23,683 nt of DNA. Source: PVC group bacterium. GTDB lineage: Bacteria > Auribacterota > Erginobacteria > Erginobacterales > Erginobacteraceae. The notes under the pieces were generated by a model. That model searched no databases. It saw nothing but the letters and a program-made list of their open reading frames with translations, and was not told the DNA's origin. Position numbers and translations under genes: made by a program. Below, one piece after another: positions 2,898 to 21,860 of the stretch (position 1 is its first letter; every line of letters begins with the position of its first letter). Location: NCBI GenBank assembly GCA_043804695.1, contig JAZDIV010000150.1:1-23683 (forward strand), in the 5' to 3' direction.

Positions 2898-3049
2898 TTA
2901 CTGCTTCGGAATTTCAATAATTATTAGCCACCAAGGCACAAAGGCACCAAGAAAAGAGGGAAAAAGGTAAAATACTCATCTCATTTGGTTTTTTCTTGGT
3001 GTCTTAGTGTCTTGGTGGCAAAAGTTGCGAGCGAAGCGAGCTAATTTAT
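2898..3049. repeat. Conserved-end intergenic element, copy A, enclosing a 29-bp-arm inverted repeat (2927-2955 / 2991-3019)
   Basis: Left 20-mer ttactgcttcggaatttcaa (2898-2917) and right 25-mer ttgcgagcgaagcgagctaatttat (3025-3049) both recur exactly at 19088-19107 and 19357-19381. Confidence 0.8.
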
Positions 3050-4216: not shown

Positions 4217-4448
4217 AAATCCGAAATCCGAATGTCGAAATCCTAAAGAAATCCAAATCCCGAAATTCAAATGTCCAAAATCAACGGTCGCCGAGCAATA
4301 GGCAGGCGGGAAGATTATTAAGTAAGAGTATTAATGTGACCAATTTCCGGAGGTATGCTCCATACGGCTTTAAGATTATCCGGCGGCCAGTTTTGGTTAT
4401 TGGGATTTAGGCATTGATTCGGATTTCGGATTTCGGGTTTCGGAATTT
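4217..4448. repeat. Long imperfect inverted repeat built of AAATCCG / CGGATTT heptamer units
   Basis: Left arm about 4217-4280 (aaatccgaaatccgaatgtcgaaatcc...tccaaaa); right arm about 4391-4448 (ttttgg...ttcggatttcggatttcgggtttcggaattt); ~110-nt non-coding interior. Confidence 0.75.
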
Positions 4449-4487: not shown

Positions 4488-7400
4488 ATGTCATTAACTG
4501 AATTTGCCTTAAAGAGAAGCCGCCTCACCGTCGTTCTCCTCGTCGTCATCCTTTTCGGAGGGATCTCGGCCTATCTCTCGCTCCCCCAGTCGGAGGACCC
4601 CGACTTCACCATCCGGACGGCGATGGTCATGACCTACTTTCCCGGCGCCTCGCCGGAAAGGGTCGAGCAGCTGGTCACCGACCAGCTCGAGCAGAAGATC
4701 CAGGAGATCCCCGAACTCGATCACATCGCCTCCGAGTCGCGGACCGGCGTTTCCCTGGTCTTCGTCGAGATCAAGGAGAAGTACACGGACATGCGGCCCA
4801 TCTGGCGGAAGCTCCGGGACAAGGTGGACGACGCCAGACCTAATCTGCCCGAGGGGATCGACGGTCCCTACGTCCAGGATGACTTCGGCGATGTTTTCGG
4901 GATCATGATCGCGATGACCGGCGAGGGGTTCAGCCAGGCCGAAATGGACGACTATGCCCGGGATATCAGGAAAGAACTCCTGCTGATCGAAAACGTGGCC
5001 CGGGTTGATATCATGGGCAGCCAGGAGGAGCGGATCTTTGTCGAGTTCTCCAACGCCCGCCTGGCCGAGATGGGATTGAGCCCGGCCCAGCTGGCCGATG
5101 CCCTGCAGACGGAGAACATCGTTCTCCCGGGAGGATACGTGAATATCGGGCCCGACAAGATCGTGGTGGAGCCGACCGGGAATTACGAGAACATCGAAGA
5201 TCTCCGCAACACCGTCATCCGCCTTTCCCAGCAGGGAGGAGAACGGCTGATCTATCTCAAGGACATCGCTTCCATCACCCGCAGCTACGTGGATCCCCCG
5301 GATACGATCGTCCATTACAACGGCCAACCCGCCGTTCTCCTGGCCGTCAACATGGCCCAGGGCGGCAACATCGTCACCCTTGGCGAGAAGATCGACGCCT
5401 TTTTGAAAGAAGCGCGCCCCGGCCTGCCGGTCGGCATCGACTTCCATTATGCGGCATTTCAGCCGGAGTATGTCACCACCGCCATCAACGACTTCATGGA
5501 AAATCTTCTGGAGGGCGTGATCGCCGTCCTGGCGGTCATGCTGGTCTTCCTCGGTCTCCGGACCGGCCTGGTGGTGGCCCCCCTGATCCCGATGACGATG
5601 CTGCTGACGTTTCTTTTAATGAACGCCTTCGGGGTCACCCTCCAGCAGGTGTCGATCGCCTCCCTGATCATCGCCCTGGGGATGCTGGTCGATAACGCCA
5701 TCGTGATGAGCGAGGATATCATGGTCCGGCTCGAAAAAGGGGAGGAGCGCTTCGCCGCCGCCGTGGCGGCCGGGAAGGAGCTGGCTGTCCCGCTCCTGAC
5801 ATCGACCCTGACCACCTCCGCCGCTTTCCTGGCGATCTTTCTGGCCCGCTCGACCGTGGGTGAATACTGCCGGAGCCTCTTTATCGTGGTCACCATGGCC
5901 CTTCTCTCCTCCTGGGTTCTCGCCCTGACCATGATCCCCCTCTTCTGCTTCTGGTTCCTGAAGGTGAAAAAAGACAAGCCTCCCCAGGAGTTCCGGGGAA
6001 AGTTTTACCGCACCTACCGGTCCTTTCTCCACTGGATGCTCACCCATCGCGGCCTGAGCATCGTTATCCTGCTCCTGGTCTTTATCGGGGTGATGCAGCT
6101 CTTCGGCTTTATTCCCAAGATCTTTTTCCCGGCCGCCGTCCGGCCCCAGTTCGTGATCGACTTCTGGCTCCCCGAGGGCACCCATCTCCGGGAGACCTAC
6201 CGGGAGATGCTCCCGGTGGAGGAATTCCTGGTGTCACGTCCCGAAGTTGATAATTTTTCGGTTTACGTGGGGGAGTCGAGCCCCCGGTTCTACCTGGCCC
6301 TTTCCCAGGAACAGAGCAATGAGAACTACGCGTTCTTCCTGGTCAACTGCCGCTCGCTCGAGGACATGGACCGGCTGATGGAAGATGTCTATCTTTTCAT
6401 GGCCGAAAACTGCCCCAGCGTTAACCCGGTGGTGAAGAAGCTGGAGACCGGCGCCCCGGTCGGCGCTCCCATCCAGATCCGGCTCTCCGGGCGGGACATC
6501 AGCCCCCGAGGGATCAAGGAACTCTACCGGCTGGCGGATCAGGTCAAAGAGCTGCTCCGGGAGACGCCGGGGTCTCTCTCCATCCGGGATTCGTGGGGCT
6601 CCCCGATCAAGAAGCTCTATGTCCGGGTCGATCAGGCGCGGGCGCGCCGGGCCGGGCTGACCAGCCAGGACATCGCCGTTTCGCTGCAGACCCAGCTGGC
6701 TGGCTACCAGGCCACCGAGTACCGGGAGGCGGAAAAGATCATCCCGGTTGAACTGCGGTCGGTCCAGGCCAACCGGGTTGACCTGGGCAAGATCGAGGGG
6801 ATGAACGTCTATTCCCTGAGCACCGGCCAGAGCGTCCCTCTCCGCCAGCTGGCGCGGCCCGAGTTTACGTCCGAGGTGGCCAAGATCGGTCGCCGCGACC
6901 GCAAGCGGGTGATGACCATCAAGTGCGATCTCGTCCCCGGGAGAACAGCCACCGAGGTCCTGGACGAAATCAAGCCCCGGCTCGCCGCCCTGACGAAGGC
7001 ATGGCCCCCCGGCTACGAGGTCGAGTACGGCGGCGAGTTCGAGGAGAACGAGAAAGCCAACCAGTCGATCGTGGATCAGCTTCCGATCTCGGCCTTTATT
7101 ATCCTGGTGCTCCTGGTCTGGCAGTTCAACTCCTTCCGCAAGACCCTGATTATCCTCATCACCATCCCGATGGGCCTGATCGGCGCCATCCTGGGCCTCT
7201 TTCTGACCGGGAGCGAGTTCGGCTTCATGTCGATGCTGGGGATGGTCGCCCTGGCCGGGATCGTGATCAATAACGCGATCGTGCTGATCGACAGGATCCA
7301 GCTGGAGATGGAGGAGGGGAAGTCCGGTCAGGATGCCATCGTCCTGGCCGCCCAGAAACGCTTTCGCCCGATCCTCCTGACCACGGTAACCACCCTCTGC

Positions 7401-7577
7401 GGCCTTCTTCCTCTCGCCCTCCAGGGCGGTCCCCTCTGGGAGTCGATGGCCTGGACGATCATCGGGGGGCTCCTCTTCGCCACCGTTCTGACGCTGGGAT
7501 TTGTGCCGCTGCTCTATTCTCTTTTTTTCAAACTGAAGTTTGAAAAAAAGAAACAGTATGGACTTATTAAAAAATGA
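4488..7577 (+). CDS. RND efflux transporter permease subunit (AcrB/AcrD/AcrF family)
   Basis: 1029 aa with YFPGASPERVE, LGMLVDNAIV, GIVINNAIVLID and RFRPILLT motifs; 12-TM layout with two periplasmic loops. Confidence 0.95.
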   Translation: MSLTEFALKRSRLTVVLLVVILFGGISAYLSLPQSEDPDFTIRTAMVMTYFPGASPERVEQLVTDQLEQKIQEIPELDHIASESRTGVSLVFVEIKEKYTDMRPIWRKLRDKVDDARPNLPEGIDGPYVQDDFGDVFGIMIAMTGEGFSQAEMDDYARDIRKELLLIENVARVDIMGSQEERIFVEFSNARLAEMGLSPAQLADALQTENIVLPGGYVNIGPDKIVVEPTGNYENIEDLRNTVIRLSQQGGERLIYLKDIASITRSYVDPPDTIVHYNGQPAVLLAVNMAQGGNIVTLGEKIDAFLKEARPGLPVGIDFHYAAFQPEYVTTAINDFMENLLEGVIAVLAVMLVFLGLRTGLVVAPLIPMTMLLTFLLMNAFGVTLQQVSIASLIIALGMLVDNAIVMSEDIMVRLEKGEERFAAAVAAGKELAVPLLTSTLTTSAAFLAIFLARSTVGEYCRSLFIVVTMALLSSWVLALTMIPLFCFWFLKVKKDKPPQEFRGKFYRTYRSFLHWMLTHRGLSIVILLLVFIGVMQLFGFIPKIFFPAAVRPQFVIDFWLPEGTHLRETYREMLPVEEFLVSRPEVDNFSVYVGESSPRFYLALSQEQSNENYAFFLVNCRSLEDMDRLMEDVYLFMAENCPSVNPVVKKLETGAPVGAPIQIRLSGRDISPRGIKELYRLADQVKELLRETPGSLSIRDSWGSPIKKLYVRVDQARARRAGLTSQDIAVSLQTQLAGYQATEYREAEKIIPVELRSVQANRVDLGKIEGMNVYSLSTGQSVPLRQLARPEFTSEVAKIGRRDRKRVMTIKCDLVPGRTATEVLDEIKPRLAALTKAWPPGYEVEYGGEFEENEKANQSIVDQLPISAFIILVLLVWQFNSFRKTLIILITIPMGLIGAILGLFLTGSEFGFMSMLGMVALAGIVINNAIVLIDRIQLEMEEGKSGQDAIVLAAQKRFRPILLTTVTTLCGLLPLALQGGPLWESMAWTIIGGLLFATVLTLGFVPLLYSLFFKLKFEKKKQYGLIKK

Positions 7578-7583
7578 TTTTGC

Positions 7584-7925
7584 TTAAAGAAAGCGGACGA
7601 AGCGGTTCTTCTCGTCCACCAGGATGCTCCGGGGCTTGATCGGGGTATCGCTCAGCTCGAAGCCCATGATGATGACCTGATCGCCTGTATCGATGAGATG
7701 GGCGGAGGCCCCGTTCATGCAGATAATCCCGGAACCCCGCTTGCCCCTGATCACGTAGGTCTCCACCCGGGCCCCGTTGGTGTTGTCGACTACCAGGACC
7801 TTCTCCCCGAGCAGGAAACCGGCCTTCTCGATCAGGTCCTCGTCGATGGTGACGGACCCGATGTAGTCAATGTCGGCATCGGTAACGGTGGCCCGGTGAA
7901 TCTTGGATCGCAGAAACCATCTCAT
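7584..7925 (-). CDS. panD: Aspartate 1-decarboxylase (pyruvoyl-dependent)
   Basis: [13 protein letters not shown] self-cleavage site, NGARVETY and NGASAH motifs; 113 aa. Confidence 0.96.
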
Positions 7926-7956
7926 TTAAAATCAGTGCCTCCGGCGCTGATTTTAA
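7926..7956 (-). promoter_or_regulatory. Hairpin enclosing the putative SD (GGAGG) directly before the panD start
   Basis: Minus strand ttaaaatcag-cgccggaggca-ctgattttaa-ATG: 10-bp stem abutting the start codon. Confidence 0.5.
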
Positions 7957-8042
7957 TGTATATTTTACAGCGCCGTCTGTTAAATCTGAGTTGATCAATA
8001 ATCGGCAGTATAGTAAGAGCTGCTGCTGGCGTCAACCGTACA

Positions 8043-8537
8043 ATGAACCTTGTCTGGCAGATCCTTATCTGGTTTATTGTGGCTGTTTTTTTCCTGGCCG
8101 GTTTGGCCGGGAGCATTATTCCCGGCATCCCCGGGCCGCCCCTGGTCTTTGCCGGCGCGCTTTTTTACGGCCTGGTGACCGATTTCCGCGAGGCGGGCTG
8201 GATAGTGCTTTCTGTCCTGGGTCTTCTCGCGGCTCTCTCCCAGATCCTGGATTATCTCGCCTCCGCCTACGGGGCGAAAAAGTTCGGCGGAAGTTCGTGG
8301 GGGATCTGGGGTTCGATCCTCGGCGGCCTGATCGGGTTCATCGTCTTCACCATTCCGGGGATGATTGCGGGGCTCTTCGCCGGCGCGGTTTTGATGGAGC
8401 TCTGGAAGGGGAAGAAAGAAACGGGGGCTGCCCTGAAAGTCGGCGGCGGAAGCTTGCTGGGTTTCCTGGGAGGCACCCTGATGAAGGCGATCGTCAGCCT
8501 CCTGATGATCGGCCTCTTCGCCGCCGCCCTCCTTTAA
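8043..8537 (+). CDS. DUF456 (YqgC-like) membrane protein
   Basis: GSIIPGIPGPPL, LDYLASAYGAKKFGGSSWG and GSILGGLIG motifs; hydrophobic throughout. Confidence 0.88.
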   Translation: MNLVWQILIWFIVAVFFLAGLAGSIIPGIPGPPLVFAGALFYGLVTDFREAGWIVLSVLGLLAALSQILDYLASAYGAKKFGGSSWGIWGSILGGLIGFIVFTIPGMIAGLFAGAVLMELWKGKKETGAALKVGGGSLLGFLGGTLMKAIVSLLMIGLFAAALL

Positions 8538-8573
8538 ATGATTTTCGGTTTGACTAATGCACCGAAAATCATT
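8537..8573 (+). terminator. Stem-loop after the DUF456 stop (possible terminator)
   Basis: Perfect 13-bp stem aatgattttcggt / accgaaaatcatt; no clear U-tract. Confidence 0.4.
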
Positions 8574-8731
8574 AGTATCCGGCTCCCTCAAAGTTGAGGA
8601 GGGTTCTCTAACGGATCCTTAGTTCAGAATTATGATTGAGCGGTGGTGGGATTTTAAAAAGGAAAGAAGTGCAGTCAAAAGATATATTTACATTTACGCC
8701 GGAGGCGGAAATGTAAAAGGAGGATGTCAAA

Positions 8732-9802
8732 ATGGGAAAACTGAAAGGCAAGGATTTAATCTGTACCCAGGAATGGTCGAAGGAAGACCTGGACCGGGTC
8801 TTTAACCTGGCTTTTGAGATGAAGCAGGACCGCTTCGGGGAGAAATATCTCGACATTCTCTTCCGGAAGCAGTTCTTCATGTTCTTCTTCAACCCGTCGG
8901 TCCGGACCCGGCAGTCTTTCGAGGCGGCGGCCACCGAACTCGGCGCCCATGCCCAGTTCCTGGAGCCGAAGGCGATGCGGCTCAAGACAGCCAAGTCGGC
9001 CGGGGAGACGATCGAGGACGCGGCCCAGGTCATGGACCGGTACGCTTTCGGGCTTGGCATCCGCATGCTGGAAGACAAGGTCTCCTATTACGGGGAAGGG
9101 GACGCCCTTATCCGGGAATACGCCAAATTCGCCCGGATGCCGGTGATCTCGATGGCCCACGACAAGTTTCACCCCTGCCAGGGGGTGGCCGACCTGATGG
9201 GCTGGATCGAGTGGCTGGCCGAGGACGGCAAGCTGCAGACCGGCTCCCTGGCCACGACCTTCCAGCCGGACGCGGTGATCGGCAAGAAGTTGCTGATCAC
9301 CTGGTCCCAGGGCGCGCTTTGCCGGTCCCTCTGCTCGGTTCAGGAGGCGGCCCTGATCGGCAGCCGTTACGGGATGGACGTCACCATCGCCCACCCGGAA
9401 GGGTATGACCTCGATCCGGAAGTCATCAAGGCCGCCCGGGTCAACTGCGAGTCGAGGGGACAGGAGTTCGTCGTGACGAACGACCCCGAAGCAGGGTACG
9501 AGGTCGCCCACGTGGTCTATTCCCGGAACTGGATGAGCCCGCAGGCCTACCGGGACGGCGCGCTTCAGAAAGAGGAAGAGGTCGCCCGGGCCAAAACCTA
9601 CACCGACTGGACCTGCACCGCCAAGCGGATGGCCCGGACCGACAACGGGATCTTCACCCACCCGATGCCGATCGACCGGGGCGCCGAGGTGGAGGACGCG
9701 GTGGCCAGCGGCCCTAACTCCTGCATCTACGACGTGGCCGAGAACCGGCTTCACGGCCAGAAGGCGATCATGGCCGCCGTCATGGGGGGGTTTCTGGATT
9801 AA
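8732..9802 (+). CDS. Carbamoyltransferase of the ornithine/aspartate superfamily, atypical (AOTCase/YgeW-like branch), substrate unknown
   Basis: Carbamoyl-phosphate motifs FNPSVRTR and HPCQ; C-terminal AENRLH. Lacks the OTCase DxxxSMG loop and HCLP, having ITWSQGALCRS, VVYSRNW and HPMP instead. RBS AGGAGG at 8718-8723. Confidence 0.9.
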   Translation: MGKLKGKDLICTQEWSKEDLDRVFNLAFEMKQDRFGEKYLDILFRKQFFMFFFNPSVRTRQSFEAAATELGAHAQFLEPKAMRLKTAKSAGETIEDAAQVMDRYAFGLGIRMLEDKVSYYGEGDALIREYAKFARMPVISMAHDKFHPCQGVADLMGWIEWLAEDGKLQTGSLATTFQPDAVIGKKLLITWSQGALCRSLCSVQEAALIGSRYGMDVTIAHPEGYDLDPEVIKAARVNCESRGQEFVVTNDPEAGYEVAHVVYSRNWMSPQAYRDGALQKEEEVARAKTYTDWTCTAKRMARTDNGIFTHPMPIDRGAEVEDAVASGPNSCIYDVAENRLHGQKAIMAAVMGGFLD

Positions 9803-9864
9803 CAACGCCCCGGGAATAGAGATAGTACCGGGTATTGGTCATAATGAAATAACAATGTGGGTAT

Positions 9865-9938
9865 GGAGTGTTGGAGTAATGGAAAGCCGGTTCCCCCCGG
9901 TATCCCACTACTCCAATACTCCAGTACTCCATTACTCC
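9865..9938. repeat. Inverted tandem 8-mer repeat (TGGAGTAN / TACTCCAN), copy 1
   Basis: ggagtgttggagtaatgga ... ctactccaatactccagtactccattactcc; same unit as at 11056-11119. Confidence 0.8.
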
Positions 9939-10013
9939 CCAACGCTTGCCCGGACCCCAACCAATAAAAAGTTGACTGAGGCGAGGGCAGTTCATCTCAG
10001 AAGGAGAACATAG

Positions 10014-10985
10014 ATGAGAAAAGTTATCGTCATCGCCCTGGGCGGGAACGCCATCAAGCAGGCCGATGAAAAAGGCACCGCGGAAGAACAGCGCAAGAAT
10101 GTCGCCACCACCTGCCGGCAGCTGGTCAGCATGCTGCAGTACGGCCATCGCCTGGTGATCACCCACGGGAACGGCCCCCAGGCCGGGAACCTCCTCATCC
10201 AGCAGGAGGCCGGCGTCAACGAAGTGCCGGCCCAGCCGCTGGACATCGTGGGGGCGATGACCCAGGGGCAGATCGGCTACATGTTCCAGCAGATTCTTCA
10301 GAACATGCTCTGGGAAGAGCGGCTTTCCCTCCCGGTGGTCTCGATCGTCAACCAGGTCCTGGTCAGCGAGGACGACCCCGATTACCAGGATCCCAGCAAG
10401 CCCGTCGGCCCGTTCTATACCAGGGAAGAGGCCGATCAGATCAAGGCCGAGCGTCCCGATTACATCATCAAGGAGGTCAAACCCGAGAACGTCGAGAAAC
10501 GGTTCCGCCGGGTTGTCCCCTCTCCCGAGCCGCTCCGCAATATCGAGTACATCGGTATCCGCCGGATGGTCGATGCCGGGATCGTGGTCATCGCTTCCGG
10601 CGGTGGCGGGATTCCGGTGATCTTTGACCAGGACAAGAGCCTGAAGGGGACCGCCGCCGTCATCGACAAGGACAAGGCGGGCGAGGTCCTGGCCACCGTG
10701 GTCGGGGCGGATATTTTCATGGTCCTGACCGACGTCGATCACGCCAAGATCAATTTCGGCAAGCCGGATGAGAAGGACGTCGGGTGCATCACCTACTCGG
10801 AGATGAAGAAGCTTTACGACCAGGGGCACTTCAAGGCCGGGTCGATGGGGCCGAAAGTTTTGGCCTGCCTCCGGTTCATCGAGTGGGGCGGCCAGAGGGC
10901 CATCATCACCAGCCTCGACAAGGCGATCAGCGCCCTGATCGACCAGAGCGGGACCCGAATCGTCCCCGACCGGGTCCGCGGGTAA
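10014..10985 (+). CDS. arcC: Carbamate kinase
   Basis: IALGGNA, ITHGNGPQAG, KPVGPFY, RRVVPSP, SGGGGIPV, AVIDKD and GSMGPKV motifs; RBS AAGGAG. Confidence 0.96.
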   Translation: MRKVIVIALGGNAIKQADEKGTAEEQRKNVATTCRQLVSMLQYGHRLVITHGNGPQAGNLLIQQEAGVNEVPAQPLDIVGAMTQGQIGYMFQQILQNMLWEERLSLPVVSIVNQVLVSEDDPDYQDPSKPVGPFYTREEADQIKAERPDYIIKEVKPENVEKRFRRVVPSPEPLRNIEYIGIRRMVDAGIVVIASGGGGIPVIFDQDKSLKGTAAVIDKDKAGEVLATVVGADIFMVLTDVDHAKINFGKPDEKDVGCITYSEMKKLYDQGHFKAGSMGPKVLACLRFIEWGGQRAIITSLDKAISALIDQSGTRIVPDRVRG

Positions 10986-11055
10986 ACCAGTTCGGAAGGA
11001 ACAAGCGCCTCCGGTCAGCAGACGGGGGTGTTTTGTCGCCTTGCAGAAAGAAGCA

Positions 11056-11119
11056 CGGAGTAATGGAGTACTGGAGGCCACGCTCCAATACTCCATCACT
11101 CCATTACTCCAACACTCCG
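11056..11119. repeat. Inverted tandem 8-mer repeat (TGGAGTAN / TACTCCAN), copy 2
   Basis: cggagtaatggagtactggag-gccacg-ctccaatactccatcactccattactccaacactccg. Confidence 0.8.
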
Positions 11120-11171
11120 GTTAACCGGATCCCGGCAGCATCAGGTTAGACTATGTAAGGATTATGTTCTG

Positions 11172-12404
11172 ATGGATAAAATAGTTGGTCTGAAGTGTCT
11201 TTCCTGCGGATGCGAGGTTGTCTGCGAGGGGATGCAGTATCTCTGCGACAGGTGCGGCTGCAACTTCGACATGGTCTATGATTATGGGGAGATCAGGAAG
11301 GTGCTGACCCGCAGCTCCCTGGCCGGGGACAAGAACTTTTCCGTCTGGCGGTACTGGGATCTCCTCCCTCTCTCCGACCGCTCTCATATCATGCCGCTCC
11401 AGATCGGCTGGACCCCTCTCTATCGGGCATCCCGGCTGGAGAAAAAACTGGGCCTGAAGGCCCTCTACCTGAAAGACGACGGGAGGAATCCGAGCGCCTC
11501 CTTCAAGGATCGGGCCAGCTCGGTGGCGATCTGCAAAGCGCTCGAGCTGGGATTTGAGACCATCGCCGGCGCCTCGACCGGGAATGCCGCCTCCTCCACC
11601 GCCTGCCTCTGTGCCAGCCTGGGGATCAGCCCCGTCATCTTCGTTCCGGCTGCGGCCCCGGAGGCCAAGGTCGCCCAGCTTCTGGTTTTCGGAGCCACGG
11701 TTTACGCGGTGGAGGGGTCGTACGACGACGCTTTCGACCTCTGCTCGGAAGTCTGCCGCGAATACGGCTGGTTCAACCGGAACACCGGGTATAACCCCTA
11801 TACCCGGGAAGGGAAGAAGACCGTTTCCTTCGAGATCTGCGAGCAGCTGGAATGGGAGGTCCCGGATACGGTTCTGGTGCCGGTCGGGGACGGGAATATC
11901 TTCACCGGAGTCTGGAAAGGGTTCAAGGATCTGAAGGGGGTCGGGCTGGTCGATCGTCTTCCCCGTCTGATCGCCGTCCAGTCCGACAAGAGTTCCGCGG
12001 TGGTCGACGCCGTCCTGGGAGATGGTGTCGTCAGGCCGGTCCAGGCTACGACAATCGCCGACAGCATTTCGGTCGACCTTCCCCGGGATGGCTCCGCCGC
12101 GGTCCGGGCGGTCCGGGAGTCGGGGGGGACGGGCGTCCTGGTCAGCGACGAAGATATCCTCCGGTCCATCCTGACGGTCGCCCGGGGAGCGGGTATCTTC
12201 GCCGAGCCGGCCGGGGCCACGGCCTACGCCGGCCTGGAGAAGCTGTGTGCCGAAGGAAAGATCGGTGATAATGAGACGGTGGTCTGCCTGGTGACCGGAA
12301 ACGGCCTCAAGGACGTCAAGTCGGCGATCAAGGTGGCCGGGAAGCCGGTCTCGATCAGCCCCACCCTCGACGCCTTCCGCTCAGTTGCCGGGGAAGGAAA
12401 ATAG
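11172..12404 (+). CDS. Threonine-synthase-like fold-type II PLP enzyme with N-terminal zinc ribbon
   Basis: CxxC...CxxC at the N-terminus, GWTPL, NPSASFKDR (PLP lysine), ASTGNA, TIADSI, AEPAGA, TGNGLKD. Symbol withheld because the substrate-phosphate motifs look altered. Confidence 0.88.
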   Translation: MDKIVGLKCLSCGCEVVCEGMQYLCDRCGCNFDMVYDYGEIRKVLTRSSLAGDKNFSVWRYWDLLPLSDRSHIMPLQIGWTPLYRASRLEKKLGLKALYLKDDGRNPSASFKDRASSVAICKALELGFETIAGASTGNAASSTACLCASLGISPVIFVPAAAPEAKVAQLLVFGATVYAVEGSYDDAFDLCSEVCREYGWFNRNTGYNPYTREGKKTVSFEICEQLEWEVPDTVLVPVGDGNIFTGVWKGFKDLKGVGLVDRLPRLIAVQSDKSSAVVDAVLGDGVVRPVQATTIADSISVDLPRDGSAAVRAVRESGGTGVLVSDEDILRSILTVARGAGIFAEPAGATAYAGLEKLCAEGKIGDNETVVCLVTGNGLKDVKSAIKVAGKPVSISPTLDAFRSVAGEGK

Positions 12405-12417
12405 ATCCCGCTCTCAT

Positions 12418-12475
12418 CTGTGGGAGAGGTTTTCAACCTCGATCGCGAACTGTGGGAGAGGTTTCCAACCTCGAT
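12418..12475. repeat. Tandem pair of REP-like 26-nt palindromic units
   Basis: ctgtgggagaggttttcaacctcgat (12418-12443) and ctgtgggagaggtttccaacctcgat (12450-12475), one mismatch; each has GTGG followed by a GAGGTT/AACCTC stem. Confidence 0.75.
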
Positions 12476-12496
12476 GCGCCCCGATGCGGTTCCCGG

Positions 12497-12757
12497 CTAT
12501 TTACTTTCCCGAAGGTACCTTTCTTTGATCCATTCCCGGATCATCGGTTGATAGCGCTTCCTTTTTTGCCTGGCCAGCTCTTTAATCCCGTCGATCAACT
12601 CGGGCTCCATCCTCAGCGTCACCATTTTTTTCTTCGGAATCCTGATTTCCACGTCTACCGGATTGTCGAAGTCAAAATAATCGGTGACATCCTGCTTATC
12701 CCAGAATTCGGACTCCTCCGGCAACGACCTGAACTTGGGCATAGTGTTCTTTTTCAT
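12497..12757 (-). CDS. CopG/BrnA-like antitoxin (C-terminal ribbon-helix-helix)
   Basis: 86 aa from ATG at 12757, overlapping the toxin stop (ATGA). PKFRSxxEExEFWD at the N-terminus and VTLRM...IKELARQK..YQPMIREWI RHH at the C-terminus. Confidence 0.85.
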   Translation of the reverse strand: MKKNTMPKFRSLPEESEFWDKQDVTDYFDFDNPVDVEIRIPKKKMVTLRMEPELIDGIKELARQKRKRYQPMIREWIKERYLRESK

Positions 12758-13044
12758 CTTTGGTATCTTCTCTTTTCGGTGCCGCTCATCATCCGGGCGG
12801 TGATGACTCGAGCGACATGCTTTTTCTCCATGACAAAAATCACCGTTATATATTTCCCCGAAAAAGTTCGTCCCAGCGCGGCATATCGCCATCTTGATTT
12901 GATTTCTTTCTTGGAGCGGACTATCAATGGTCGATCTGTTTGATTAAGAAATACCTCGGTTATTTCATCAAAAGCCAAACCGTGTTTGGCGGCAATTTTT
13001 TCTTCCATTTCTCTGTTCGCGGGATAGACAGCGTCAATCCTCAT
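12754..13044 (-). CDS. BrnT-like (RelE-fold) ribonuclease toxin
   Basis: KIAAKHGLAFDEITEVF, RYAALGRT, YITVIF, RVITAR and EKRRY motifs; upstream of and translationally coupled to the antitoxin; start set at ATG 13044. Confidence 0.85.
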   Translation of the reverse strand: MRIDAVYPANREMEEKIAAKHGLAFDEITEVFLNQTDRPLIVRSKKEIKSRWRYAALGRTFSGKYITVIFVMEKKHVARVITARMMSGTEKRRYQR

Positions 13045-13050
13045 GCCTTC

Positions 13051-13078
13051 AACGTACCATGGAATCAGCATATGTCAA
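13051..13078 (-). promoter_or_regulatory. Promoter of the TA operon, probably giving a leaderless mRNA
   Basis: Minus strand TTGACA-16 nt-TACGTT with TG extension; the ATG begins 7 nt after the -10 box. Confidence 0.6.
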
Positions 13079-13161
13079 TACAAATGTATGTATGTTATGC
13101 CCACTGTGAGACTTCCGCCGATTTGAAATTATCCTGAAATTATCCTTTTAATATTCCCTGA

Positions 13162-13190
13162 TTGCCCTATATCTGTTATATTCCTATCAT
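13162..13190 (+). promoter_or_regulatory. Candidate sigma70 promoter of the fibre-like gene
   Basis: TTGCCC-17 nt-TATCAT, preceded by tandem TGAAATTATCC x2 (13124-13145). Confidence 0.4.
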
Positions 13191-13282
13191 CCTGGTTTCG
13201 CATAATATGGCTGTCCGTCATTAAAATCCGTCTGAAGGGGATCGTGTTATCAATCCCGGTACGATTTAGCATTTTTTAACTA

Positions 13283-13325
13283 ACCCGATTTATGCCGGCC
13301 TGATACAGGCAGACATAAATCGGGT
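13283..13325 (+). promoter_or_regulatory. Leader hairpin upstream of the RBS of the fibre-like gene
   Basis: acccgatttatg / cataaatcgggt 12-bp stem plus inner gcctg/caggc; GGAGGTG RBS at 13333-13339. Confidence 0.5.
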
Positions 13326-13343
13326 CAACACGGGAGGTGAAGA

Positions 13344-14702
13344 ATGAAGCAAGTGTTGACAGTGGTGGTTATGCTGGCGGCAATGTGCTCAACGCTGACC
13401 GCCCTGGGCGCCGACTTCAACGGCGATGGGTACGACGATATCGCCGTTTTCCGGCCCTCGACCGGTCTCTGGGCGATCCGCGACCAGGGAAGGTACTACT
13501 TCGGGCAAGATGGTGATATCCCGGTGCCGGGGAAGTTCGTCAGCTCAAGCCATGACAGCATCGCCATCTTCCGGCCCACGGAAGGCCTCTGGGCGATCAA
13601 CGGGGGCGCCCGGTATTACTTCGGCGGCGAGGCCGGCGACATCCCGATCGGAGCCTGCGCCAGCGGCGTCGGTGATAGCCTCTGGACCCAGAGTGGAAAC
13701 AACATCTACTACGACGCGGGCTACGTCGGCATCGGAACCACCGAACCAAGATTTAACCTCGATATTTATCGGGATTCGTCCTATTGGTCGTACCTTCGTT
13801 TTACCAACACCACCACCGGAACCGCGGATGGAAACGGCGTCCTGGTCGGGATTGACCCCGATGAAGATTTCCGGATCCATTCTTACGAGGCAAACAACAT
13901 CAAATTCTTCATCAACAACGATGAAAAAATGAGGATTCAGAACGACGGGGATGTCGGAATCGGCACCACGAACCCATACGAAAAACTCCACGTCCAGGAC
14001 AGCTCGAGTGGTTGGTATGTGGCCATGTTTGAGAATATATCCGACAATAGTTCCGCAAAACTTTTAAGTTTAAGGATAAATAAGAATCACCCGGGCACGA
14101 GCAACGAATATATAGCATTTTACCAGGATACTGGTTCTATTGGCGCAATCACAGGCGACGGCGCCGGTGGGGTTTGTTTCACCGGAAGCAGCTGTGACTT
14201 TGCTGAGTACCTGCCCCGGCTGATGGCTGACGAGGACATCGGAGCAGGAGACCTGGTCGGTGTTCAGGGAGGCAAGATCACCAAAGATACCAGTGAGGTT
14301 GAACAGATTAAGATCGTCTCCACGGCCCCGATCGTCCTCGGTAATTCTCCCGGAAAGGAAAAAGAACATCTCTGCGAGAAAGTTGCCTTTATGGGGCAGG
14401 TACCGGCCAGAGTACGGGGAAAGGTACAGACCGGGGATTACATCGTTCCTTCGGGATTGAATGATGGTATAGGAATGGCCATTGCCCCCGACAAACTTAC
14501 CTCCGACGATTGTGCTCAGATTGTGGGGAGTGCCTGGGAAGCTTCGAATGATGAGGGAGTAAAGCTGGTCAATATTTCAGTTGGACTGGGAGCCACAGCC
14601 AAAGCTTCTCAACAGCTGAGCCTCGCGAAAGACCGGAAGATCGACGACCTCACCGCCCGCCTGGAAGTGCTGGAGCGGATGGTGAAAGAAGGGAAGCAGT
14701 GA
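13344..14702 (+). CDS. Secreted protein with two FG-GAP-like repeats, tail-fibre-like GIGT repeats and a putative C-terminal intramolecular chaperone domain
   Basis: Signal peptide; DFNGDGYDDIAVFRPSTGLW and SIAIFRPTEGLW repeats; GYVGIGTTEP and GDVGIGTTNP; DFAEY...IVSTAP...FMGQVP...GDYIV...IVGSAWE; terminal coiled coil IDDLTARLEVLE. Confidence 0.8.
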   Translation: MKQVLTVVVMLAAMCSTLTALGADFNGDGYDDIAVFRPSTGLWAIRDQGRYYFGQDGDIPVPGKFVSSSHDSIAIFRPTEGLWAINGGARYYFGGEAGDIPIGACASGVGDSLWTQSGNNIYYDAGYVGIGTTEPRFNLDIYRDSSYWSYLRFTNTTTGTADGNGVLVGIDPDEDFRIHSYEANNIKFFINNDEKMRIQNDGDVGIGTTNPYEKLHVQDSSSGWYVAMFENISDNSSAKLLSLRINKNHPGTSNEYIAFYQDTGSIGAITGDGAGGVCFTGSSCDFAEYLPRLMADEDIGAGDLVGVQGGKITKDTSEVEQIKIVSTAPIVLGNSPGKEKEHLCEKVAFMGQVPARVRGKVQTGDYIVPSGLNDGIGMAIAPDKLTSDDCAQIVGSAWEASNDEGVKLVNISVGLGATAKASQQLSLAKDRKIDDLTARLEVLERMVKEGKQ

Positions 14703-16719: not shown

Positions 16720-16855
16720 GCCACCAGGGCGCGAAAGGCACTAAGAAAAGATAAAAGGAGCAAAACGTGCATGCTGTTTATTTCCCGTAGTGCGTTGCCC
16801 CGCCCCTGGCGGAGCTAAACGGGGTTGTCTTAGCGGCCGAAGGGAGCTGATTTAT
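16720..16855. repeat. Diverged third copy of the conserved-end element (GCCACC-type palindrome plus right-end motif)
   Basis: gccaccagggcgcgaaaggcactaagaaaa (16720-16749) resembles 2927-2955 and has a degenerate right arm to ~16812; gcggccgaagggagctgatttat (16833-16855) matches the right-end motif at 19 of 23 positions. Confidence 0.6.
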
Positions 16856-19087: not shown

Positions 19088-19381
19088 TTACTGCTTCGGA
19101 ATTTCAAAAAAAGAGAAATCAAGTAGTGTAGTATTGTCCTTTCGCTTCGCTGCTCTTCGGCAAGCTCAGGGTCTGCGACAGGACTTGTAGGATCAGAATG
19201 CCTTCGGCATTCTTTAGTAGTAATTGTAGGATCGCTTCCTGCCTGCTGACAGGCAGGCGCTTGCAGTTCGGCAAGCGTTGCCGCAGGCAAGGCGATACTA
19301 CAATTACTACATCTGCCGCAAGTCCTGAACGGAGTGAAGGACGATCCTACATAAATTTGCGAGCGAAGCGAGCTAATTTAT
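19088..19381. repeat. Conserved-end intergenic element, copy B, enclosing nested GTAG-type palindromes
   Basis: Same 20-nt left and 25-nt right ends as 2898-3049; the interior is a nested multibranch inverted-repeat structure (19127-19351). Confidence 0.8.
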
Positions 19382-20519: not shown

Positions 20520-21860
20520 ATGACAGAGAAGAAGAAGAGGAAGAAAACCGCGATGCGGAAAACCGCGTCGGGGAAAAAGCCTGCCTCCAGAAAGGCCGGA
20601 AGGAAAAAGAAAACCGTTCTCAAAAAATCCGCGGCTCACAAGATAACCGTATCAGGAAAAAAGGCTGGCAAGAAGAAGTCCTCCCCCGGAAGAGGGCCAT
20701 CCCCGGCCCGGGCGGTTGCCCCGAAAAAGAAAGCGGGTCGCAAAACCGCCGCCGGCAAGAAAGCCGCCTCGGTCCGCCCCCGAAAGGCGGTGAAGAAAAC
20801 GGTCCGCCGCGCCACGCCGCGCCCTCCCGCTAAAATAGAGTGGGATGAGATCTATGAGATGGAGATCGTCACCCGGGCCCGGAGCTGGAACCGCGCCCGG
20901 GACGTGGGGACGATCCAGGGCGTCAACCGCCGGATGGCGTTCGGCGGCTATCTGGATGTCATCCGGGACGCCGACCGGGCATATGAAGGAACGATCTGGA
21001 AGATAGCGGGAGAGATTCTGGCAAGGCGGAACGCCGTCAGGATGGTGATCGTGGCCGGGCCGAGCTCTTCCGGGAAAACCACCACCACGCTCAAGCTCTG
21101 CGGGGCGCTGCGGGCGATGGGCGAGGAGCTCCAGGTTCTTCCGCTGGACAACTACTTCTGGAATCTGGAAGGCCAGCCCCAGGACGAGTTCGGCGATTAC
21201 AACTTCGAATCACCGGTGGCCCTGGACATTCAGACCATCAACCGCAACCTCCGCGAACTGCTTGACGGCCGGGAAACTCTGATCCCGGTGTATGATTTCA
21301 AGGCCGGCCGGCGGCAGGAAGAGCCGATGAAGATGAAGCAGGAGCCGAACCAGCTCCTGGTCGTGGAAGGGCTTCACGCCTTCCATCGCCCGGTAACGGC
21401 TTCCATTCCGGCCGAGAGCCAGTTCCGGGTTTATGTCGAGACCATCTGTCAGCTTCAGGACCGGGATTATAATTTCGTCCCCTGGACGGACATCCGCCTT
21501 TTGAGAAGGATGGTCAGGGACAATGTCCACCGCAACTACACTCCCTTCAGGACGCTCGGCCACTGGCATTATGTCCGGGAGGCGGAGAAGGAATACATCG
21601 TGCCCTTCATCAGCCGGGCGGACGCGGTGGTGAACGGGTATCTGCCCTATGAACTCCCGGTCTACAAGAAATACCTCTATCAGCCCCTGAAGAAGGCGGT
21701 GGAGGAGTATTCGGAACAGCCCGGGAGGAAGGACGCCCTGCGGAGGGGAATCCGGTGCCTCGCTTACCTGGAGGAGATCGATGTATTGGATGATGAATCG
21801 GTCATCCCTCCCACCTCCCTTCTCCGGGAGTTTATCGGCGGGAGCGTCTACAAGTATTAA
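20520..21860 (+). CDS. Uridine-kinase-like P-loop nucleoside kinase with a ~100-aa Lys/Arg/Ala-rich N-terminal tail
   Basis: Walker A GPSSSGKTT, LDNYF, YNFESPVALD, VEGLHA, RLLRRMVRD and SLLREFIGGS motifs; N-terminus is low-complexity and basic. Confidence 0.88.
   Translation: MTEKKKRKKTAMRKTASGKKPASRKAGRKKKTVLKKSAAHKITVSGKKAGKKKSSPGRGPSPARAVAPKKKAGRKTAAGKKAASVRPRKAVKKTVRRATPRPPAKIEWDEIYEMEIVTRARSWNRARDVGTIQGVNRRMAFGGYLDVIRDADRAYEGTIWKIAGEILARRNAVRMVIVAGPSSSGKTTTTLKLCGALRAMGEELQVLPLDNYFWNLEGQPQDEFGDYNFESPVALDIQTINRNLRELLDGRETLIPVYDFKAGRRQEEPMKMKQEPNQLLVVEGLHAFHRPVTASIPAESQFRVYVETICQLQDRDYNFVPWTDIRLLRRMVRDNVHRNYTPFRTLGHWHYVREAEKEYIVPFISRADAVVNGYLPYELPVYKKYLYQPLKKAVEEYSEQPGRKDALRRGIRCLAYLEEIDVLDDESVIPPTSLLREFIGGSVYKY

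Follow-up and report, generated by a model that had tools for sequence, protein, structure and literature searches.

A carbamoyltransferase, carbamate kinase and threonine synthase-like gene trio in an Auribacterota genome: probable energy-yielding end of a variant reductive uric acid pathway

In this study, we analysed a 23,683-nt stretch of DNA (the window), which is contig JAZDIV010000150.1 (C150) of a PVC group bacterium of the Auribacterota. The assembly (GCA_043804695.1, genome G000) comprises 2.97 Mb in 155 contigs and is 88% complete; C, G and L numbers designate its contigs, genomes and loci, respectively. Open reading frame (ORF) analysis revealed three co-oriented genes on the + strand, which encode a carbamoyltransferase (CTase) named CT1, a carbamate kinase (CK) and a pyridoxal phosphate (PLP) enzyme resembling threonine synthase (ThrC), named ThrCl:

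8732..9802, + strand: CT1 carbamoyltransferase, 356 aa, with Pfam domains OTCace_N and OTCace and motifs SVRTR, HPCQG, VYSRNW and HPMP
10014..10985, + strand: carbamate kinase, 323 aa, TIGR00746
11172..12404, + strand: ThrCl, ThrC-like fold-type II PLP enzyme, 410 aa, PALP domain (266 bits)

These ORFs match exactly the three genes of a preliminary description of this DNA, which took them for an undescribed, ATP-yielding module of ureido-compound catabolism. Our results suggest that the trio probably makes ATP by substrate-level phosphorylation at the end of a variant reductive uric acid (2,8-dioxopurine) pathway, a route published in 2025, so the word 'undescribed' has to be given up. The closest relatives of all three proteins come from metagenome-assembled genomes (MAGs) labelled Candidatus Erginobacter, Candidatus Euphemobacter, Auribacterota, Aureabacteria, 'PVC group bacterium' or 'uncultured bacterium'.

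CT1 is a two-domain aspartate/ornithine carbamoyltransferase by Pfam (PF02729, 114.6 bits; PF00185, 109.3 bits) that scored under every NCBIfam cut-off. Its best model was acetylornithine carbamoyltransferase (AOTCase, NF003384; 216 bits vs. a cut-off of 288); the scores were 178 vs. 280.85 for ornithine carbamoyltransferase (OTCase, TIGR00658), 166 vs. 500 for putrescine carbamoyltransferase (PTCase), 98 and 101 vs. 453–500 for YgeW and 72–78 vs. 237–263 for aspartate carbamoyltransferase (ATCase), which agrees with its having been called atypical. The best PDB match was the AOTCase of X. campestris (3m5c, E = 1.8e-44), with E. coli YgeW far weaker (3q98, 3.2e-24). Compared with the family signatures given in the relevant parts of Shi et al. 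(2015) and in Table 1 of Barba et al. (2013), CT1 retains SxRT (as SVRT) and HPxQ (as HPCQ) and carries HPMP where all the families listed have HxLP. The DxxxSMG ornithine-binding loop and HCLP are absent, and CT1 has VYSRNWMSP and HPMP; the Arg of VYSRNW replaces Lys252 of AOTCase. The signature described for AOTCase is E92/N185/K302 and that for succinylornithine carbamoyltransferase (SOTCase) is A, S, P, V or Q / P / V, I or E, with a Trp in the 80s loop. In the alignment to 3m5c, the three positions are G (E with a one-residue shift), S and E in CT1, and the 80s loop contains no Trp; the signature residues of AOTCase and of SOTCase are all lacking from CT1. Shi et al. (2015) describe an extended 120s loop and a proline-rich loop for the knotted transcarbamylases, of which CT1 has the former, and the equivalent of the latter (WSQGALCRSLCSVQE) contains no proline. 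Insertions typical of YgeW were absent from the aligned CT1 sequence. CT1 is thus like AOTCase (X. campestris, 3kzc/3m5c) and SOTCase (B. fragilis) in its best PDB match, length, extended 120s loop and HPCQ, but differs from them in a shorter 80s loop, the lost signature residues, the Lys252-to-Arg change, the missing prolines and a gene context that is catabolic rather than an arginine cluster. These motif features are kept clade-wide (90% consensus, 46 sequences). An insertion of ~16 residues after the HPCQG helix (residues ~163–182) occurs in the window protein and its close relatives (356 aa) and is absent from other CT1 proteins (337–350 aa).

The maximum-likelihood tree of 92 carbamoyltransferase sequences, which does not fix the order of the deep branches and leaves out rows <290 aa and CTase genes lost to antisense ORF calls, placed CT1 in a single clade of its own (46 rows, SH-aLRT 100). 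A second clade (28 rows, SH-aLRT 99) holds another family, CT2, represented in this genome by a 374-aa protein on C51 (254.5 bits vs. 288 for the AOTCase model; 175.5 vs. 453 for the YgeW model). Both clades were apart from E. coli YgeW, from E. coli ArgI with the OTCase of this genome, from E. coli PyrB and from the AOTCase/SOTCase-type reference, for which one arginine-cluster enzyme of G035 stood in place of the Xanthomonas AOTCase and Bacteroides SOTCase. The tree thus bears out the preliminary description in so far as CT1 groups with none of OTCase, AOTCase/SOTCase-type enzymes and YgeW, and from its sequence we assign CT1 to a new clade of carbamoyltransferases. The family is large (5512 of 8000 scored candidates at E ≤ 0.001); the best 120 homologues are 62–90% identical and, where named, are called ornithine or N-acetylornithine carbamoyltransferase.

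The kinase is canonical, covering the full length of TIGR00746 (393.1 bits vs. 358.25), and is the sole match above that cut-off in the 88%-complete assembly. ThrCl has a Cys-rich, Zn-ribbon-like segment at its N-terminus. Like the threonine synthases it is of fold-type II, aligning with solved members over ~345 residues (E = 5e-67 to 7e-60; 3e-63 to 5e-67 for T. thermophilus 1uim and A. aeolicus 2zsj) and retaining the PLP lysine (SFKDR motif) and the STGN loop. Its scores against the YgeX model NF006058 were 50.9 and 39.6 bits, the cut-off being 276. The preliminary description had called this gene altered, and at four positions the protein indeed differs from all the solved ThrCs: A139, G206, T211 and D240 stand where five of five (Aquifex, Thermus, M. 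tuberculosis, B. subtilis and Arabidopsis) have T, S, R and N, which are T88, S155, R160 and N188 in Thermus numbering. Relative to ThrC, the differences are T88A, S155G/A, R160T/L/M and N188D. Among 32 cluster-linked ThrCl proteins (the window protein and 31 locus copies), A at T88 and D at N188 occurred in 31 and R at R160 in none. An Arg just after the T211 position (NPYTREG) is confined to the close relatives and L044 and is therefore not a conserved substitute for R160. When the best 150 representative clusters (50% identity level) minus 8 shorter than 330 aa were compared, the A / non-R / D signature was present in 102 of 142 and the canonical one in 1 of 142. Every public name among the best 120 homologues is 'threonine synthase'. 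ThrCl is a paralogue that coexists with a canonical ThrC in this and other genomes; G007, G008, G009 and G026, for instance, hold a signature copy as well as a canonical T-N-R-N copy. A third signature, A-P-P-Q-x-S/G, neither of canonical ThrC nor of bacterial ThrCl type, was observed in ThrC-like genes of archaeal CT1 genomes (L113, L114 and L055; Asgard, Thermoplasmata).

The counterparts argF and thrC, whose presence the preliminary description had named as a check on its proposal, were found elsewhere in the genome. There are three carbamoyltransferase genes, namely CT1, CT2 and a canonical OTCase on C75 (TIGR00658, 401.5 bits vs. 280.85; STRTR, HPTQ, DVWASMG and HCLP), and two ThrC-type genes, ThrCl and a canonical 457-aa ThrC on C143 (TIGR00260, 230 bits). 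Both findings favour the view that CT1 and ThrCl are extra, non-housekeeping copies.

To place the trio, we turned to the reductive uric acid pathway as set out in the main parts of Li et al. (2025, Life Metab, PMC12507026) and Liu et al. (2025, bioRxiv 10.1101/2025.04.24.650524) and in the commentary by Percudani (PMC12990295), which summarises both. Urate is first acted on by XdhD or XdhAC and its ring is reduced by YgfK or UacX; two ring openings follow, the first by SsnA and the second by HyuA, to yield 2,3-diureidopropionate. YgeW then phosphorolyses one ureido group, the carbamoyl phosphate being converted to ATP by YqeA; YgeY hydrolyses the other, and YgeX converts 2,3-diaminopropionate to pyruvate. 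The intermediate after 2,3-diureidopropionate is albizziin or 3-amino-2-ureidopropanoate, and Percudani lists which ureido group is cleaved first, and the stereochemistry, as open questions (PMC12990295). In the parts of Li et al. and Liu et al. that describe neighbouring genes, these are binned by Pfam, PF00185 counting as 'YgeW' and PF00291 as 'YgeX' (PMC12507026; 10.1101/2025.04.24.650524). The term 'threonine synthase' occurs 0 times in the text of either paper; their supplements may list such neighbours. Our literature search found no relevant account of a ThrC-like enzyme in purine clusters or together with a carbamoyltransferase and carbamate kinase.

Candidates for the rest of this pathway are present in the genome, scattered over other contigs. 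SsnA is encoded on C88 (540 bits vs. 444), YgeY on C109 (333 vs. 321), with a second, weaker YgeY-like gene on C70, and a true YgeX (diaminopropionate ammonia-lyase) on C78 (510 vs. 276). On C36, MoeA and two gene sets of the xanthine-dehydrogenase type accompany an 850-aa PreT/PreA-type reductase, which shares 52–59% identity with reductases beside SsnA in Acidobacteriota loci. In the C109 YgeY-family gene (~5944–7075; 2910–4118 in L085), the model is matched to 329/399 and the last 62 residues lie in another frame, which reflects either a frameshift or an assembly error. Thus SsnA, YgeY (apparently frame-shifted), YgeX and carbamate kinase exceed their cut-offs; the xanthine-dehydrogenase sets, the reductase and a cyclic amidohydrolase are present but under specific cut-offs, as are the carbamoyltransferases of the new clades.

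Gene neighbourhoods were compared in 75 loci from species-representative genomes, 64 of which have a CT1-type gene at ≥50% identity. Partners were counted by tblastn because the greedy ORF picker sometimes took antisense frames in GC-rich loci (clusters c3, c19 and c20). Carbamate kinase was found in 52 of the 64 CT1 loci (30 of the 34 with ≥6 kb on both sides), ThrCl in 32 (19 of 34), the two together in 28, and a CT2 orthologue, 42–79% identical to the C51 gene, in 37 (22 of 34); four of the 12 loci without the kinase end <1 kb downstream of CT1. These counts uphold the proposal that the trio is conserved as a catabolic module with a carbamoyltransferase of a new clade at its core. The order CT2-CT1-CK-ThrCl occurs in Acidobacteriota, Chloroflexota and Caldisericota, CT2-CT1-CK with ThrCl not in the locus in Elusimicrobia, and CT1-CK-CT2-ThrCl in Marinimicrobia. 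In Acidobacteriota (L056–L065) it extends to SsnA - reductase - (YgeY) - CT2 - CT1 - CK - ThrCl. NCBIfam models identified, beside CT1 in other phyla, YgeY (448 bits vs. 321), YgfK (907 vs. 835) or an 850–900-aa PreT/PreA-type reductase, and D-hydantoinase (399 vs. 393). Other recurrent neighbours are an SsnA-type amidohydrolase, MocA/YgfJ, xanthine-dehydrogenase subunits, adenine deaminase, a GntR regulator and c6, a CysK-like PLP enzyme of ~490 aa. With the kinase in 52 of 64 loci and purine genes in several, CT1 has the gene context typical of YgeW, next to carbamate kinase and within ssnA/ygeY/ygfK/xdh clusters. The analogy with the E. coli ygeW-ygeX-yqeA cluster drawn in the preliminary description is thereby borne out, and the pathway intermediates are close to the albizziin it had guessed; carbamoyl-diaminobutyrate, its other suggestion, found no support.

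The association of ThrCl with purine genes is broader than that of CT1. Fourteen of the 19 genomes whose fetched flank seemed to lack ThrCl hold a copy 50–56% identical, which in G017 and G040 falls within the fetched locus or on its border; all 11 ORFs recovered from these 14 genomes carry the signature. Of 151 evenly sampled Chloroflexota genomes, including the unpublished genomes G088 and G181, 22 (neither of these two among them) gave a match of ≥373 bits to the window ThrCl, and SsnA (E ≤ 1e-80) was found in 22 of these 22 vs. 14 of the 129 others (Fisher p = 2.5e-17). The ThrCl and SsnA genes are adjacent in G129 and G192. CT1 was present in six of the 151, five of which are the five top ThrCl scorers. 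Given this co-occurrence, ThrCl is part of SsnA-marked purine clusters, more broadly than CT1 is.

YgeX was found by hidden Markov model (HMM) search in eight of 50 genomes with loci of CT1 type (in a few, of a related type), comprising seven close relatives and G046, and was not found by that search in the other 42, which are MAGs. A loose tblastn search with YgeX matched six CT1 loci and a strict one a single locus (L074); we took the six loose matches as cross-hits of the PALP family. Because a true YgeX is present, ThrCl is not needed as a diaminopropionate lyase in this genome.

Taking the purine-gene neighbourhoods together with the candidates for the rest of the pathway in the genome, we consider the trio a probable variant of YgeW-YqeA-YgeX. 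The two systems share an adjoining carbamoyltransferase, carbamate kinase and fold-type II PLP enzyme, the association with SsnA, YgeY, YgfK-type reductases, hydantoinase and xanthine-dehydrogenase genes, and the logic of turning ureido phosphorolysis into ATP. Unlike the YgeW-YqeA-YgeY-YgeX system of E. coli, CT1 is not a YgeW orthologue, having neither the YgeW insertions nor the proline-rich loop and HPMP rather than HCLP; a second carbamoyltransferase family, CT2, goes with it; the PLP neighbour is ThrC-like and not YgeX (40–51 bits vs. 276); and the present genome has its genes dispersed and retains YgeX in addition to the trio. With the arginine and agmatine deiminase pathways the trio has in common a gene pair of carbamoyltransferase and carbamate kinase, by which a ureido compound would be turned via carbamoyl phosphate into ATP. 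It differs from them in its neighbours, which are purine genes in other genomes, and in that CT1 is outside the OTCase/PTCase clade; no match to an arginine or agmatine deiminase was found among the 15 window proteins scanned with Pfam and NCBIfam, as the preliminary description had stated for the window.

We infer the substrates, the reaction directions and the reaction of ThrCl as follows. CT1 would use phosphate to split a ureido group off 2,3-diureidopropionate, or off the mono-ureido product, giving carbamoyl phosphate and a free amine. The kinase would convert carbamoyl phosphate and ADP to ATP, CO2 and NH3, and ThrCl, acting on a substrate with a free alpha-amino group, would take the amino acid so freed, either albizziin or 2,3-diaminopropionate, through a beta-elimination towards pyruvate. 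CT2, which is encoded on a different contig in this genome and lies in tandem with CT1 in others, may release the second ureido group; YgeY, in those genomes that have it, could be an alternative or act at another step. Phosphorolysis of the YgeW type is thermodynamically less favourable than hydrolysis, as the relevant section of Li et al. (PMC12507026) reports, and it makes sense therefore to place the carbamoyltransferase with enzymes that remove its products; in such an operon, the kinase and ThrCl would pull away both products of the unfavourable reaction. The ThrCl substitutions turn Arg and small polar residues into Ala, Gly or hydrophobic residues and place Asp at Asn188. If the four positions have the role in ThrC that we assume for them, these changes would suit a substrate whose distal group is neutral or cationic, such as ureido or amino, and not a phosphate. 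Albizziin and O-phosphohomoserine have side chains of similar length, so albizziin may be at least as attractive a ThrCl substrate as diaminopropionate.

More speculatively, and with a good deal less confidence, CT1 and CT2 might together with one kinase harvest both ureido groups of 2,3-diureidopropionate, giving two ATP per purine ring and not one, and the ThrC-like family might be a new class of PLP lyases for ureido- or diamino-propionate. Since Auribacterota also keep YgeX, ThrCl would in that case do something that YgeX cannot, direct elimination of the 3-ureido group from albizziin being a candidate.

Several observations weigh against placing the trio in a purine pathway in this way. 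The pathway genes lie on at least seven separate contigs of this genome, so that any co-regulation of them is hypothetical, and the three genes themselves are parted by gaps of 186–211 nt with strong hairpins. The hydantoinase candidate, a cyclic amidohydrolase on C134, is below both allantoinase and hydantoinase cut-offs. Some clusters hold YgeY and two carbamoyltransferases, that is, three ureido-cleaving enzymes for two ureido groups. ThrCl exceeds two threonine-synthase cut-offs (NF006050, 313.3 bits vs. 303; TIGR00260, 234 vs. 167.1), and the reading of its four changed residues as an altered phosphate site presumes that T88, S155, R160 and N188 of Thermus ThrC hold the phosphate of O-phosphohomoserine. 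The roles of CT1, CT2 and ThrCl are predicted from sequence and gene context, and the bit-score thresholds in the Chloroflexota comparison (373 and 450) were picked after the score distribution was known. As for the last step, the YgeX role suggested for ThrCl in the preliminary description is weakened: a true YgeX occurs in this genome and in seven of seven close relatives, and c6 occurs in 46 of 51 CT1 genomes, including the same seven relatives. In G005 and G046, c6 adjoins or is near YgeX; the 88%-complete assembly to which the window belongs gave no c6. This CysK-like enzyme could be a real substitute for YgeX and is an equally good candidate for that role. Because Auribacterota have both ThrCl and YgeX and c6 is as good a candidate, ThrCl is not simply YgeX in another guise.

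Three other explanations were considered. The same type of module, phosphorolysis coupled to carbamate kinase, could serve another ureido compound, such as beta-ureidopropionate from reductive pyrimidine breakdown, N-carbamoylputrescine or an external albizziin-like amino acid. This explanation draws on two PAD_porph (agmatine-deiminase-type) genes on C19 and C117, on a PanD-like gene (PanD makes beta-alanine) that lies divergently upstream here and in the close relatives, on the PreT/PreA (dihydropyrimidine dehydrogenase) type of the reductase beside the xanthine-dehydrogenase genes, and on the separation of the trio from all ring-opening genes in this lineage. However, CT1 reaches 166 of the 500 bits required by the PTCase model; the PanD neighbourhood is limited to close relatives; and the PydA-type reductase UacX belongs, in the pathway section of Li et al. 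(PMC12507026), to the purine pathway itself. Given also that CT1 stands beside SsnA, YgeY, YgfK and xanthine-dehydrogenase genes in other phyla, and that SsnA accompanies ThrCl in 22 of 22 genomes, we regard another ureido substrate as unlikely.

Public names point to a different explanation, in which CT1 is a divergent ornithine or acetylornithine carbamoyltransferase, catabolic or anabolic, and ThrCl a second threonine synthase that is its neighbour by chance: homologues are called 'ornithine/N-acetylornithine carbamoyltransferase' and 'threonine synthase', AOTCase is the top model and top PDB match (3m5c) of CT1, and ThrCl passes two ThrC cut-offs. This is very improbable in view of the canonical OTCase (402 bits vs. 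281) and canonical ThrC elsewhere in the genome, the residues of CT1 at the AOTCase/SOTCase signature positions (G or E, S and E at E92, N185 and K302, and no Trp at W77), and the four ThrCl deviations at positions invariant in five solved ThrCs. The CT1-bearing genome G035 has in addition a true arginine-cluster AOTCase/SOTCase (402 bits), no arginine deiminase reached the cut-off anywhere in the present genome (best 20.6 bits vs. 489), and the synteny with purine genes is kept across phyla. Least probable of all, in our judgement, is an anabolic module in which the kinase makes carbamoyl phosphate from carbamate and CT1 carbamoylates a diamino acid made by ThrCl to an albizziin-like ureido amino acid. 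Carbamoyltransferase reactions are reversible, and diaminopropionate and diaminobutyrate carbamoyltransferases (DPTCase and DBTCase) are known in antibiotic pathways. Carbamate-kinase-like enzymes are described as able to act anabolically in some archaea in the part of PMC6022934 that deals with them. Against this, the DPTCase/DBTCase motifs (TRWQ..G and HDLP) are absent from CT1, CT1 associates with ring-opening and ureide-hydrolysing genes, and the Pfam and NCBIfam scan of the window proteins revealed no biosynthetic genes, of the nonribosomal peptide synthetase (NRPS) or another type, near the trio. If the assumed phosphate-site role holds, ThrCl would also have no site for substrates of the O-phosphoserine type.

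The flanks and gaps of the trio contain further features, as follows:

8043..8537, + strand: DUF456 small membrane protein, PF04306 (136 bits)
8550..8578, + strand: sigma-70-like promoter match 5′ of CT1, TTGACT-17-TAGTAT, 9/12, a consensus match only
9854..9933, + strand: octamer-repeat hairpin like repetitive extragenic palindromic (REP) elements, gap 1, −45 kcal/mol, z −6.1 vs. shuffles
11057..11110, + strand: REP-like octamer-repeat hairpin, gap 2 (I21, I9), −38.7 kcal/mol, z −7.0 vs. shuffles

The DUF456 gene also lies 5′ of CT1 in L008–L012, L015 and L026 (65–85% identity), all close relatives, and it is uncertain whether it is part of the module. An Rfam scan of 7500–13400 found no element. 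Both gaps (211 nt between CT1 and the kinase, 186 nt between the kinase and ThrCl) contain an 8-nt-period NNACTCCN unit with its reverse-complement partner (family D1, eight copies), and the 20-nt I9 arms, one per gap, are 100% complementary. The statement that the gaps hold the same repeat type was thus accurate. As a mark of the operon the repeat was rejected, as NNACTCCN-unit REP-like arrays occur genome-wide (52 on 31 of the 155 contigs); it is therefore uninformative on this operon.

Other 8-nt-period hairpin repeats flank the RND efflux genes of the window, one of GGCACCAA type at 2924–3022 and others of AAATCCGA type at 2864–2885, 4217–4239 and 4412–4440. The efflux operon is headed by an unusual fusion (456–2882, 808 aa) of an ABC-type substrate-binding domain (PF04392) with two outer-membrane efflux (OEP/TolC) repeats. 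The PanD-like aspartate 1-decarboxylase (7584–7925, − strand; identified by eye from its translation) is divergent upstream of the DUF456 gene and is kept at that place in close relatives with 81–87% identity. Directly 3′ of ThrCl lies an overlapping BrnT-toxin/CopG-type antitoxin pair (12497–13071, − strand), with a 25-nt direct repeat (GTGGGAGAGGTTT.CAACCTCGAT) at 12420–12475 between the two. A 29-nt element (D10) occurs at 3021–3049, 16827–16855 and 19353–19381, copies 1 and 3 being 97% identical and copy 2 69%; it lies 0–30 nt 5′ of three unrelated starts, those of an efflux adaptor, a histidine kinase and a GFO oxidoreductase, and may be a common 5′-UTR or promoter-proximal motif. The uridine-kinase/PRK-family protein at 20520–21860 has an N-terminal extension of ~170 aa encoded by repeated GAAAAAGAAAACCG-type units (D11).

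In summary, the breakdown of urate by anaerobes was elucidated as late as 2025, and in gut bacteria. The locus described here and its relatives suggest that environmental anaerobes widely possess a version of different construction, in lineages including Auribacterota, Chloroflexota, Acidobacteriota, Marinimicrobia, Elusimicrobia and Asgard archaea. Annotation as ornithine or acetylornithine carbamoyltransferase or as threonine synthase may be wrong for thousands of genes, an error that skews reconstructions of metabolism such as those of arginine and threonine prototrophy. Two separate carbamoyltransferases and new PLP enzymes would be natural tools for the questions of ureido order and stereochemistry raised in the commentary PMC12990295. 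If both ureido groups are indeed phosphorolysed, the energy yield of purine fermentation would double at this step, and if the predicted reaction of ThrCl is true, the ThrC-like family, whose sequence clusters number at least 102 and all go under the public name 'threonine synthase', would form a new class of PLP lyases.

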